Origin: Escherichia phage vB_EcoM_SA20RB
Length of the DNA: 64,000 nt
Sequence record: OL960581
Strand: one strand, 5' to 3'
Position numbers and translations under genes: made by a program. Shown here in pieces: positions 20,773-24,233 of the stretch. Positions within the stretch are counted from its first letter, which is position 1. Each line of letters starts with the position of its first letter. The notes under the pieces were generated by a model that had not been told where the DNA came from, did not search any database, and saw only the letters and a list, made by a program, of their open reading frames with translations.

Positions 20773-21783
20773 TCATTTATAATAACTTCGGTGGTTTTCA
20801 AGATAAACCCTCTCAAGGAAGTCATCCCAGAAACCCATGTCTACTTTTTGTTGCATACCGTTCTTAGAAGCTTCAATAGATGCTGCTTCTACTTGATCGA
20901 CCACATCTTCCAAAAACTCTTGAACAGTTTTAAATGGATGTTTACCAAGCTTCACGTCGAGAATAAATGGAGCGTCTTGGAGTGGATAGACTAAGTCACC
21001 AGTTTTGTAAATTTCCAATAGTTGGAGTCCACCACGACAAGCATGACTCAGAGCTTTCCAGTCAATACCCTCATTCGCTTCAGCCTTACGAGCACGTTCA
21101 CCATATTCAGCATCAAGTTTATTCAAAGACTGCTTAAGCTCAATAAGAGAAAGAGTTGTCTGATATTTACGACCCAACACAGTGTAGAACGTTTGTGGGC
21201 CTGTTTTCTCATGATTATGGAATACCCATTCACAGAATTCGTTCTCTGGAAGACGATGCTTAATATCTTCAACTTTAGTTCGACGCTGCTTAATGGAACC
21301 GTCTTCTTGGTAATCAACCCATTGCTCAGGGATTTGATTAACTACTTTCAATACATCACGCAATGCGGCCAAACGAGAACCCTTGACACCATATTTAGAA
21401 GCTTGCTTGCGGACATATCCTAAATAAGATTTCATGTTAGTTGTATAAAAACGAGAACGATTGTCTTGAATAAACTTCCACACATCAGGTAAATCAGATT
21501 TAACCACTAGTTCAGGTGGAGTGTGAAGCATATCTAATGCTACGGTTTCACCATCTGCTGCTAATTTAAAGAAATATTTAAGACTGTATAGTTCATGGTC
21601 AATATCATCTTTAGTGTTTTTAGATGATGTGTTGTTGGTATTTTTACTCATATGCTCTTTAACATTTCCGATAAGAATATCACGAGCAGGAGGAACAAAG
21701 ATTTCTTTAAAATCTACATCAGATTCTGGGGTAGAAGTTCCATAAAGATGACTACCAAAATAACTTTTCATTACTGTTTTCAT
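20773..21783 (-). CDS. Nucleotidyltransferase-fold protein (GS-X10-DVD signature), nrdC.11 position
   Basis: 336 aa; N-terminal FGSHLYGTSTPESDVDF matches the minimal nucleotidyltransferase pattern hG[GS]-x(9-13)-Dh[DE]h. Confidence 0.6.
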   Translation of the reverse strand: MKTVMKSYFGSHLYGTSTPESDVDFKEIFVPPARDILIGNVKEHMSKNTNNTSSKNTKDDIDHELYSLKYFFKLAADGETVALDMLHTPPELVVKSDLPDVWKFIQDNRSRFYTTNMKSYLGYVRKQASKYGVKGSRLAALRDVLKVVNQIPEQWVDYQEDGSIKQRRTKVEDIKHRLPENEFCEWVFHNHEKTGPQTFYTVLGRKYQTTLSLIELKQSLNKLDAEYGERARKAEANEGIDWKALSHACRGGLQLLEIYKTGDLVYPLQDAPFILDVKLGKHPFKTVQEFLEDVVDQVEAASIEASKNGMQQKVDMGFWDDFLERVYLENHRSYYK

Positions 21784-22226
21784 TTAACATCCTTAAATTC
21801 TATCATAGGGCAGATTTTAGATTTACTAGCTTTAAGGTATTCAACGATTACACTATTAGGATGTTCAATACCGTTTTCTTCGTCTTGTTGACGCTTCCAC
21901 GCTCTATCATACCTGACTCCTTCCCATAAACCTGAAATCTTAGCTACAATATATGCTATACCTACTGCAATAACGACAATCGTAGCAAATATCAGTACAC
22001 CAAATACGGTTCCGCCTGCGTGTAGAAGCCAGAATCCTGTAACACCAAATTGACTTAAAATAGCTTGTCCTACCACCCAACTACCTAATAGCCCCGATGT
22101 GCAAATAACACCGATAACTAAGAACGTCCACGCCATTTTCCAGAAATATTTACACAAAGAATTCGGACGCTGCCAGTAAAAGAAATCATGCATACGAACG
22201 TGCCAAGAGTTTTCATTAATAATCAT
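21780..22226 (-). CDS. Integral membrane protein
   Basis: 148 aa; long hydrophobic core; 4-nt overlap with the upstream gene. Confidence 0.55.
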   Translation of the reverse strand: MIINENSWHVRMHDFFYWQRPNSLCKYFWKMAWTFLVIGVICTSGLLGSWVVGQAILSQFGVTGFWLLHAGGTVFGVLIFATIVVIAVGIAYIVAKISGLWEGVRYDRAWKRQQDEENGIEHPNSVIVEYLKASKSKICPMIEFKDVK

Positions 22227-22228
22227 AA

Positions 22229-22750
22229 TTATCCTTTCATTGAAGGTGTAACAGTTGTTAAATACTTAATCATAGCTTCAGCTTCTGATTTTGATAATGA
22301 AATTTCTCCATTGTTTTGACGAATAGAAATAAAATCCGGATGACGGTCACCACCAGCTTTTAAAATACACATATAAGTATCAGTTTCATCTTCAATATCT
22401 GAAATGATTGAAGCAGTTCCGCATGAATGCGGTTTTTGATAAATCAATGCAGCTTTTCTTCCACCGTTTGACTGTTCATAAACTTTTAACACATCAAACA
22501 AATCACTTCTTTTATCAATAGCTAAGATGTTGTTTTCATCTTCAATGTTAAATCCTTCGGATACTTCATAAAGTGTCACCCATAAATCACCTATATCGAT
22601 AGTAGCATTTCCTTTTCCACGACTTTCAAGAGTATGACAAATTTTCTTGATTTCGTCATAACTCATTTTAATAATATCATCTCCTTGAATAAGGAAGATG
22701 TCATTTTTAAATTCAACACGAATTAAACCGCTTTCACTTGAAATAAACAT
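22229..22750 (-). CDS. Hypothetical protein, paralog pair member 1
   Basis: 173 aa; C-terminus SKSEAEAMIKYLTTVTPSM parallels TKDEAIALKTYLDSVIPTM of the next ORF. Confidence 0.55.
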   Translation of the reverse strand: MFISSESGLIRVEFKNDIFLIQGDDIIKMSYDEIKKICHTLESRGKGNATIDIGDLWVTLYEVSEGFNIEDENNILAIDKRSDLFDVLKVYEQSNGGRKAALIYQKPHSCGTASIISDIEDETDTYMCILKAGGDRHPDFISIRQNNGEISLSKSEAEAMIKYLTTVTPSMKG

Positions 22751-22756
22751 ATTTCC

Positions 22757-23314
22757 TCACTTTGAAATCATAGTTGGAATGACAGAATCAAGATAAGTCT
22801 TTAGCGCAATGGCTTCGTCTTTGGTAAATGTGACAATATGTGATCGAAAATCATCAATTTGACGAATAGTTAAGACATCTCCCTCTTCATAACATTTTGA
22901 TACATTTAAAAGAGTTTCATCATTCTGATTGCAATCGTTAGTAATAATAGCATTGCAATTTTTGAGCCATTTTAAACTATGTTTTCTTTCATTAGAATAA
23001 TAAAAATATTTAATCTTAGCTATAAAACTATCCCAATGAATAACTGATAAACACATTGACTCACTTTTAATATTAAATCCTGGGCATGAAGAATAAAAAT
23101 GAATTTTGTGCTCATCATTGATGCTTACTATTTTATCAGTATAAGGATATTCAATTTGGGTTAAATGAATGATTTCACTAGGCGTAAAATACAGCATATC
23201 GTCTTCTTGCGTCAAACGATACATGTTATTTACTTTTTCTATAGCCAATTCACCAAAAAGCGGACTAACTTCTAATACTAATCGTTTCATATTGATTCTC
23301 TTCGACTCATTCAC
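22757..23314 (-). CDS. Hypothetical protein, paralog pair member 2
   Basis: 185 aa; shared C-terminal motif with 22229..22750. Confidence 0.55.
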   Translation of the reverse strand: MNESKRINMKRLVLEVSPLFGELAIEKVNNMYRLTQEDDMLYFTPSEIIHLTQIEYPYTDKIVSINDEHKIHFYSSCPGFNIKSESMCLSVIHWDSFIAKIKYFYYSNERKHSLKWLKNCNAIITNDCNQNDETLLNVSKCYEEGDVLTIRQIDDFRSHIVTFTKDEAIALKTYLDSVIPTMISK

Positions 23315-23449
23315 AATTACATACTCCTTTGAATAATATCAATAATGTTGTTCACCAGATTATAAGTAAACATCGGGTGATAATATTGAATCATCACATA
23401 CACAACAAACAAAACTTTCATTCTCTTCTCCTTGGCAGTTGACAAGATT

Positions 23450-23479
23450 ACTATACCATAACCTTGCCAACTTGTAAAC
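23450..23479 (-). promoter_or_regulatory. T4-type early promoter (-35 GTTTAC, -10 TATAGT)
   Basis: Minus strand reads GTTTACaagttggcaaggttatggTATAGT. Confidence 0.5.
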
Positions 23480-23481
23480 CA

Positions 23482-23655
23482 TTAAATGACGTTTTCAATA
23501 AAATTCTGAAGCTTTGTGTGAGCATCAACCATGATTTTCATTTCTTCCTTTGCGAAAGCTGTACCTCTTTCACGAGAAGAATACTCATAGTCAGAAACTG
23601 CATTAGCATATTCTTCAATTAGCTTCATTAAAAACATCTGCTTTTCAGTTTTCAT
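23482..23655 (-). CDS. Small hypothetical protein (about 57 aa, below the ORF-track cut-off)
   Basis: Hand translation MKTEKQMFLMKLIEEYANAVSDYEY... Confidence 0.3.
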   Translation of the reverse strand: MKTEKQMFLMKLIEEYANAVSDYEYSSRERGTAFAKEEMKIMVDAHTKLQNFIENVI

Positions 23656-23839
23656 TATTCCACCTAATCATTTCAAGATATTGAACTAACTTAGCTTTAG
23701 ATTTATCCAAATCCTTTTTAGCTGCTTCTATACCATCGTATGAATATCCTTCACAATGCTCAACTGCCAATTGGTATGAATCTATTTCAATATCACGTGC
23801 TAATTTAATGATTTTTTCAAACTGTTCACGTGTTAGCAT
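23645..23839 (-). CDS. Hypothetical protein
   Basis: ORF-track 64 aa. Confidence 0.45.
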   Translation of the reverse strand: MLTREQFEKIIKLARDIEIDSYQLAVEHCEGYSYDGIEAAKKDLDKSKAKLVQYLEMIRWNNEN

Positions 23840-23841
23840 AC

Positions 23842-24045
23842 TTAAACTCTCGTATTATGATCGATAATTTCATCAAGAAACATATCTAAAGCTTCTACAG
23901 CATTATCAACTTTAGCTTCAAGTTCTTCAGCGCCTTTATTTGCAATGCCTGACGAAAACCAAGCAAAGTCACTAAGTTCCTCATCTGCTTTGCGAATTAA
24001 AGCTACCAATTCTTTAATTTTATCTGCTTGTTCGATACTAATCAT
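23842..24045 (-). CDS. Hypothetical protein (trimmed to the internal Met)
   Basis: ORF 23842..24081; start at 24045 removes the overlap with the upstream gene (TAATG junction). Confidence 0.4.
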   Translation of the reverse strand: MISIEQADKIKELVALIRKADEELSDFAWFSSGIANKGAEELEAKVDNAVEALDMFLDEIIDHNTRV

Positions 24046-24233
24046 TATTCCACCACATATGAAAGAGAGAATATTGCACACGCCATATGAGTTGCAGCTT
24101 CATCACACATATCATAACGTTTCTTAAGAAGTTTTTCAAGTTCTTCACTGGTAACTTCATCCATGTTGACGAAAAAATCACCATTAATGATGACGTAGAT
24201 ATTTCCTTCTTGATTAAGTGCTTCAATTTTCAT
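24045..24233 (-). CDS. Hypothetical protein (trimmed to the first ATG downstream of the promoter)
   Basis: ORF 24045..24278; the promoter at 24262-24291 lies inside the long ORF; ATG 24233 follows AAGAGGAGAA. Confidence 0.45.

Follow-up and report, generated by a model that had tools for sequence, protein, structure and literature searches.

A tandem gene pair of the MobD.1/Y05I family in a T4-like phage: paralogy, predicted PUR/Whirly-like fold and a proposed third repeat

INTRODUCTION

The 64,000-nucleotide stretch of Escherichia phage vB_EcoM_SA20RB analyzed here (sequence record OL960581; the whole stretch is called the window) carries two adjacent open reading frames (ORFs) of 173 and 185 amino acids with similar C-terminal ends, and the locus raises the question of what these genes are, how they came to stand side by side and what their products might do. 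An initial annotation, made from the DNA letters, saw in them an ancient tandem duplication of unknown function next to a membrane-protein gene. The window is a segment of a Tequatrovirus (T4-like) genome whose early region is read on the minus strand. Its two genes are members of a family already on record as T4 MobD.1/Y05I (Pfam PF24449 and PF24448), and they lie in a known hypervariable region of the T-even phages.

The explanation that we prefer, which we regard as about evenly balanced between right and wrong, is that the pair are early-expressed, non-essential accessory genes of this family and that each product is built from three Pur-alpha-like units, the third of which dimerizes. What the analysis adds is the predicted PUR/Whirly fold class of the family, the argument for three repeats with the C-terminal motif as the helix of a dimerizing repeat, and the linkage to the membrane gene.

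RESULTS AND DISCUSSION

Two related genes of one family

Both ORFs are present on the minus strand where they had been placed, and the two C-terminal peptides quoted for them translate exactly (Table 1). The 185-amino acid protein is 87.5% identical to T4 MobD.1 (UniProt P39240, Y05I_BPT4) by tblastn and has a homolog in 728 phage records; its gene occupies the same place as in T4, between mobD.2-type small ORFs and nrdC.11, with collinear flanks. Many genomes annotate this ORF from the ATG at 23290, which may be its start and would give a protein of 177 amino acids. The 173-amino acid protein has tblastn matches in 466 phage records, 433 of them at an identity of at least 80%, and its gene is a paralog and not an ortholog of T4 mobD.1; T4 itself is without it.

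The two proteins align by BLASTP over nearly their full length with 26% identity (25-27%), 47% positives and E = 3e-8. Their Smith-Waterman score of 93 lies far above the 31.0 ± 5.1 obtained from 2000 shuffles (z = 12), none of which reaches it. Without the C-terminal ~30 residues, the two proteins still score 66, compared with 29.9 ± 4.9 for the shuffles (z = 7.3, again with none reaching the real value), so the similarity extends past the C-terminal motif, and the internal relationship suggested at the outset is confirmed. Both proteins contain the Pfam domains T4_y05I_N (PF24449) and T4_y05I_C (PF24448), named "y05I-like putative transcription factor", in this order and above the curated gathering scores of 24.9 and 27 bits: 110.5 and 82.6 bits for the 173-amino acid protein, and 133.1 and 76.7 bits for the 185-amino acid protein. 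Both also match PHROG 1502. The ratio of nonsynonymous to synonymous substitution rates (dN/dS) is 0.09-0.20 across ortholog comparisons and 0.17-0.20 for the 173-codon gene. Both genes are real and under purifying selection. The opposite view, that the resemblance reflects chance or the composition of two AT-rich ORFs, or that the ORFs are not genes, could draw on the low (26%) pairwise identity; it is refuted by both shuffle statistics, the Pfam gathering scores, the dN/dS values and the detection of the T4 ortholog as a protein, and its probability is negligible.

The C-terminal motifs, VTFTKDEAIALKTYLDSVIPTM in MobD.1 and ISLSKSEAEAMIKYLTTVTPSM in the paralog, had been described as near-identical, which overstates their resemblance: 9 of the 22 residues are identical and about 16 similar. 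Across the family, the pattern (L/F)TKxEAxAL(V)xYLNSVIP(T/S)M at the C-terminus is nevertheless the most conserved feature, including in homologs that consist of the C-domain by itself.

The family is small. An exhaustive HMMER search with the family profile over 1.84 billion representative proteins returned just 29 clusters, comprising full-length proteins (173-196 amino acids), fragments and standalone C-domain proteins (67-87 amino acids). All of them belong to the y05I family, so no bridge leads from it to a characterized family, and word-indexed searches added no distant members. Standalone C-domain genes are found at the same locus in Marfavirus, Tegunavirus, Winklervirus and Moonvirus, specifically between rI/rI.-1 and nrdC.11 in Klebsiella phage Marfa, Yersinia phage phiR1-RT, Serratia phage CHI14 and Citrobacter phage Merlin. 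A search of predicted viral structures recovered only the y05I family itself and weak matches to uncharacterized Bacillus phage proteins. NCBIfam has no model that covers either paralog, and a sequence search of PDB chains with the full-length and C-domain profiles gave nothing significant, with no Pur-alpha at E ≤ 10. The best PDB-chain match, AcrIIC5 (E = 0.22), was treated as chance.

Predicted fold and a proposed third repeat

AlphaFold2 models of both paralogs, calculated from a shallow alignment of 26 sequences, show the same order of elements, namely four strands and a helix, four strands and a helix, and five strands and a helix. The predicted local distance difference test score is 80-93 in the N-terminal part, which comprises the first two units, and ~47-77 in the C-terminal unit (47-64 in the C-domain of MobD.1). 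The structures closest to the models are those of Pur-alpha, MRP1/2, Whirly p24, StWhy2, PC4/Sub1, an SsgA-like protein and two cyanobacterial proteins of unknown function, with SsgA among the top three matches of the 173-amino acid model. The two β-β-β-β-α repeats that together make one intramolecular (type I) domain, by which a PUR domain is defined, are present in the models. Both models likewise show the topology of the PC4-like superfamily (β-β-β-β-α-linker-β-β-β-β-α over ~100-150 amino acids), and their structural neighbors are members listed for that superfamily (PMC7549692). Membership of the Whirly family in the narrow sense, which combines a match to the Whirly sequence profile with tetramer formation, was not found.

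The C-terminal unit appears to be related to the first repeat. When a hidden Markov model (HMM) was built from standalone C-domains only, its strand-turn-strand-helix aligned to repeat I in six of eight diverse N-domains, in constant register and with per-sequence E-values of 1e-5 to 1e-3. By hhalign, repeat I matches the C-domain, that is, the candidate repeat III, at P = 0.002 and in register with the predicted secondary structure. Reciprocal HMMs pick up each other's regions when scanned over the window, and Pfam DUF7189, below its threshold, reaches repeat I in both proteins as well as 5 of 18 C-domains. The motif common to repeats I and III reads I-x-Q-[ED]-D-x-[IV]-x-[LF]-T-x-x-E. Taken together with the topology of the models, these signals make a three-repeat, Pur-alpha-like layout the best reading of the MobD.1/Y05I proteins, and we propose that the C-domain of MobD.1 is a third PUR-like repeat and the dimerization unit.

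Several observations weigh against this interpretation. At E ≤ 1, Pfam detects no sequence similarity of the two proteins to PurA, Whirly or PC4, so that membership of the PurA profile is not supported either, and hhalign of the C-domain profile against the C-terminal domain of human PC4 (sequence checked against 1pcf) gave no signal. What connects the family to Pur-alpha is therefore predicted structure, derived from 26 aligned sequences. No hhalign signal was obtained between repeats I and II or between repeats II and III. Every family member examined is acidic, with an isoelectric point of 4.2-5.8 and a net charge of -3 to -22, unlike typical PC4-like nucleic-acid binders.

According to a 2020 review, a single β4-α repeat is unlikely to be stable alone, single-repeat bacterial Pur-alpha dimerizes, and no protein other than Pur-alpha is known to have both an intramolecular (type I) and an intermolecular (type II) PC4-like domain, the latter being the one that dimerizes (PMC7549692). 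By analogy with the type II domain of Pur-alpha, the C-terminal unit of the phage proteins and its standalone versions should dimerize, and the standalone C-domain proteins would then parallel the single-repeat bacterial Pur-alpha. Sequence conservation is highest in the C-domain, where the monomer models are least confident, and this combination fits an obligate dimer unit.

In the mechanism that we propose, each protein would consist of three units of beta-sheet plus helix, laid out like those of eukaryotic Pur-alpha. The first two (I and II) would fold together in a single chain as a PUR/Whirly-type (type I PC4-like) domain, and unit III, unable to complete a domain alone, would pair with unit III of a second molecule to give homodimers or, possibly, heterodimers of MobD.1 and its paralog. 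The C-terminal motif would supply the last strand and the amphipathic helix of unit III and thus the core of the dimer interface. The N-domain would be the variable part that recognizes a ligand and is exchanged as a cassette between phages, while the C-unit stays constant.

Gene order and early expression

On the minus strand, the region at 19.7-25.9 kb of the window carries the T4 early genes tk, rI.1, rI and rI.-1, followed by several small mobD.x ORFs and by nrdC.11 and nrdC.10. With 2 kb around the pair as the query, 503 phage records match at 90-99.7% identity. Within this region, mobD.1, the 173-codon gene, the membrane gene and nrdC.11 form a tightly packed run of four genes: the ribosome-binding site of the 173-codon gene overlaps the mobD.1 stop codon, the membrane gene starts 2 nucleotides past the stop of the 173-codon gene, and its own stop overlaps the nrdC.11 start (ATGA). 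The pair had been placed downstream of the membrane gene; since these genes lie on the minus strand, the order is the reverse, and the pair is upstream in the direction of transcription.

A promoter-like site precedes mobD.1 (Table 1), and we take it to resemble the consensus of T4 early promoters. It is consistent with the early expression known for T4 mobD.1, whose RNA and protein are both early, the protein having been seen by mass spectrometry (PMC9697503). Directly upstream stand three small paralogous genes in tandem (23482-23655, 23645-23839 and 23842-24081, minus strand), whose products of 57-67 amino acids fall in Pfam DUF7438; they are of the T4 mobD.3/.4/.5 type, and related contigs hold four or five copies. 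A six-frame ORF scan of the whole window with HMMs found no extra copy of either y05I domain or of the membrane protein.

Table 1. Features of the mobD.1 locus in window coordinates, with the basis of each assignment
Feature	Position	Strand	Basis
T4 mobD.1 ortholog (Y05I_BPT4), 185 amino acids from GTG at 23314 or 177 from ATG at 23290	22757..23314	-	tblastn, PF24449, PF24448
173-amino acid MobD.1 paralog	22229..22750	-	BLASTP, PF24449, PF24448
MobD.1 N-domain (residues ~10-110), two predicted β4-α repeats, PUR/Whirly-like, type I PC4-like	22985..23287	-	predicted structure
MobD.1 C-domain (residues ~111-185), β5-α	22760..22984	-	PF24448 at 113-182; strands 112-163, helix 165-178 in model
Paralog N-domain (residues 1-97), predicted PUR/Whirly-like	22460..22750	-	predicted structure
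Paralog C-domain (residues 98-173), holds ISLSKSEAEAMIKYLTTVTPSM	22232..22459	-	PF24448 at 102-171; five strands then helix 154-167 in model
Conserved C-terminal motif VTFTKDEAIALKTYLDSVIPTM of MobD.1: last strand, amphipathic helix, tail	22769..22834	-	translation exact
C-terminal motif ISLSKSEAEAMIKYLTTVTPSM of the 173-amino acid paralog	22238..22303	-	translation exact
148-amino acid membrane protein, PHROG 944, co-transcribed	21780..22226	-	PHROG match
nrdC.11, RlaP-type nucleotidyltransferase, next gene in run	20773..21783	-	Pfam PF10127 RlaP E = 3.7e-11; PHROG 388 nucleotidyltransferase; T4 annotation
Promoter-like site, TTTACA-17-TATAGT with extended -10 TG	23450..23478	-	consensus scan 10/12 + TG; ~135 nucleotides upstream of mobD.1

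Recombination and the origin of the pair

Recombination has made the locus a mosaic, in which the breakpoints fall between genes and between domains. Homology to T4 ends at 21784 and resumes at 22732, and the gap at 21785-22731 (compared with L002 7448-8258 in T4) indicates that the cassette of the HNH homing endonuclease gene mobD stands in T4 in place of the membrane gene and of the 173-codon gene, apart from the first ~6 codons of the latter. The target site of MobD is given as unknown in the review by Edgell; it may lie in or beside these genes in phages without mobD. In comparison with phage Kelasse (L004), the N-domain of MobD.1 (22893-23315) is also swapped, for an allele of 47% identity. 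Within MobD.1 this domain alone is affected: the last ~45 codons are 94% identical in DNA, and the flanking genes ~94-95%.

A gene found in six contigs (P0011; L009 3001-3540 and L010 3001-3540) joins a MobD.1 N-domain to a 173-type C-domain at the inter-domain linker and is the sole family member at its locus; it looks like the product of recombination between the tandem paralogs at that linker. In a metagenomic contig (L008), a 173-type gene (P0010, 56% identical) is the sole family member. In T2, the MobD.1 gene is in three frameshifted pieces and is accompanied by fragments of 50-63 amino acids that match the 173-type C-domain at 96-100% identity; the T2 lineage appears to be losing both genes through decay. 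T4 remains viable when the stretch from nrdC.11 to mobD.3 is deleted (PMC9825161). Together, the exchanges and single-copy loci, the replacement in T4, the chimera, the T2 fragments and the viable deletion mark the genes as dispensable accessories that are exchanged rapidly, their N-domain being variable and their C-unit constant.

The 173-type sequences group together in a neighbor-joining tree of ten sequences, as a clade that falls outside every MobD.1 type (those of Tequatrovirus and Dhakavirus and of a branch further away) and shares 20-30% identity with them, which makes the split between the paralogs old. The ancient paralogy suggested in the initial annotation is thereby upheld, and duplication in place becomes one possible origin among others: the pair may have arisen by such a duplication followed by losses, or by recombination that stacked two alleles, as the single-copy 173-type and chimera loci allow. 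In the latter scenario no duplication in place occurred, and two long-diverged alleles of a single-copy locus were brought together. The solitary 173-type gene in the L008 contig, the restriction of Dhakavirus and Mosigvirus to the MobD.1 type, the position of the 173-type clade and the frequent recombination at the locus, including the chimera that collapses the pair, all speak for stacking. An ancestral tandem pair that later lost one gene would leave the same pattern, and T4 did lose the 173-type copy, of which it keeps the first codons; the tree, too, is a simple one of ten sequences. We therefore consider stacking a serious possibility, though one that falls somewhat short of an even chance.

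The membrane-protein gene

A homolog of the membrane gene follows a y05I-domain gene, full-length or standalone, within 0-10 nucleotides or with a short overlap in 10 of the 10 lineages examined (the window, IME08, Kelasse, RB69, Marfa, phiR1-RT, CHI14, Merlin and two metagenomic contigs). The adjacency holds even where extra genes part the membrane gene from nrdC.11. It may partly be inherited synteny within one phage subfamily, and to that extent it weighs against the explanation preferred here. The membrane family reaches further than the y05I family. In Pseudomonas and Aeromonas phages the genes upstream of it are unrelated, and a candidate explanation, that they are cryptic y05I C-domains, was dropped after the HMMs found nothing there.

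The allele in the window is rare, with an identity of at least 95% in 7 of the 1072 phage records that have a homolog and below 60% in the rest. In comparison with phage AR1, only the transmembrane core (21852-22199) is non-homologous, and the first 27 and last 72 nucleotides of the gene are kept. The N-terminal SWH...LCxYFWK motif and the C-terminal KAxKSKxCPxIEF tail of the protein are invariant across genera. In Pseudomonas phage C2-10_Ab02 (Pakpunavirus; L013 2001-3337), the membrane family adjoins an RNA ligase, a phosphoesterase and an HD phosphohydrolase. This set, and the RlaP-type nucleotidyltransferase in T4-like phages, may represent a recurring RNA-repair neighborhood of the membrane family.

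What the proteins may do

The function of the pair had been called unknown. Experimentally this remains true, and our search of the literature found no functional study of MobD.1/y05I and none of T4 linked to Pur-alpha. The genes are, however, no orphans, having a T4 ortholog, a curated Pfam family and a recognizable, predicted PUR/Whirly (PC4-like) fold.

The fold might suggest that both proteins are regulators that bind single-stranded DNA or RNA like Pur-alpha, Whirly and PC4, binding or unwinding nucleic acid and modulating phage or host transcription, or the fate of RNA, early in infection. The closest structures are those of nucleic-acid binders (Pur-alpha, MRP1/2, Whirly p24, PC4/Sub1), PC4-like folds generally bind single-stranded nucleic acids (PMC7549692), and jumbo phages are known to have a Whirly-fold RNA-binding protein (PMC11077065). 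An RlaP-type nucleotidyltransferase gene is among the neighbors, and the homologous membrane gene adjoins an RNA ligase in a Pseudomonas phage. The charge of the family runs counter to such a role, and so do the conserved polar positions of the N-domain, which are mainly acidic (E26, D39, E47, E85, the QEDD turn and the GFNIE motif). Pfam, PDB-chain profiles and hhalign revealed no sequence relation to any nucleic-acid-binding family, and SsgA shares the fold yet is annotated as a cell-division protein. On balance, we consider direct binding of nucleic acid unlikely.

The proteins could instead be acidic protein-binding factors, that is, decoys, inhibitors or adaptors directed against a host protein or defense, which may work with or regulate the membrane protein and whose variable N-domain would track a variable target. 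Their acidity would suit such a role, as would the divergence of alleles within one genus (just 25-50% identity, with flanks at ~95%) and the exchange of N-domains as cassettes. The position of the membrane gene directly after the y05I C-domain gene in all ten lineages examined, kept despite insertions before nrdC.11, points the same way, and the genes are dispensable in the laboratory and decayed or replaced in T2 and T4, as is typical of conditionally useful accessory genes. Against this, there is no known target, and neither paralog matches a PADLOC defense or anti-defense model at E ≤ 0.1. The membrane allele has been swapped without change in the paralogs, which argues against tight co-evolution of the variable parts, and the membrane family occurs without a y05I partner in Pseudomonas and Aeromonas phages. 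This role is accordingly a tentative suggestion, and a doubtful one.

With the acidic charge, the acidic conserved residues, the missing sequence link and the case of SsgA all bearing on the choice, we place a protein-binding or adaptor role slightly above direct nucleic-acid binding. A basic or nucleic-acid-binding protein as the partner, or a joint role with the membrane protein, is slightly favored over direct binding of single-stranded nucleic acid. A bolder extension is that the family is the first outside eukaryotes with the full Pur-alpha architecture, now turned into an acidic adaptor that does not bind nucleic acid, and that the paralogs, heterodimerizing via their conserved C-terminal helices, join the membrane protein in taking over the host or countering its defenses; this must be regarded as speculative and rather improbable.

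Consequences for annotation

No long-standing question is opened by this locus, which holds dispensable accessory genes in a hypervariable T-even region already known as such, and the practical value of the analysis is in annotation. Hundreds of Tequatrovirus genomes call these genes 'hypothetical' or, wrongly, 'molybdopterin-guanine dinucleotide biosynthesis protein MobD', apparently through confusion with the T4 gene name mobD.1. UniProt labels the family 'T4 y05I-like putative transcription factor ... domain-containing protein'. RefSeq and other records (e.g. AR1_102 and T4p101) name mobD.1/mobD.x ORFs as molybdopterin MobD and nrdC.10/nrdC.11 as 'thioredoxin'; both the thioredoxin and the molybdopterin labels look like errors propagated from T4 gene names. 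In their place, the analysis offers a predicted PUR/Whirly-like fold, a domain logic of a variable N-domain and a constant, putatively dimerizing C-unit, and a likely partner in the downstream membrane protein. If the three-repeat architecture is true, a layout thought to be unique to eukaryotic Pur-alpha extends to phages, and the pair would be a small, tractable system for how a third repeat controls oligomerization.

Comparison with known systems

The Whirly, MRP1/2 and SsgA-like structures (PDB 1L3A, 3N1H, 2GIA and 3CM1) are among the closest comparators in fold. The single-repeat PC4-like dimers, namely Borrelia Bpur (3N8B), PC4 (1PCF), YdbC and the phage T5 PC4-like protein (4BG7), are also among the structural comparators; no sequence relation to y05I was detected, the hhalign comparison with PC4 being empty. 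A precedent for a phage protein of this fold class acting during infection is ChmC, a Whirly-fold protein of nucleus-forming jumbo phages (PMC11077065); it comes from an unrelated phage family and is described as RNA-binding, whereas the y05I family is acidic. With Pur-alpha itself (PDB 3K44 and 5FGP for repeats I-II, 5FGO for repeat III), the phage proteins share only 4-12% sequence identity. Pur-alpha is basic and the y05I proteins are acidic, and the C-terminal unit of the latter is five-stranded in a low-confidence model, unlike repeat III of Pur-alpha. With T4 MobD.1 the relationship is one of sequence as well as domain order: the 185-amino acid protein is its ortholog (87.5% identity), and the 173-amino acid protein, though it shares both domains and their arrangement, is a deep paralog (25-27%).

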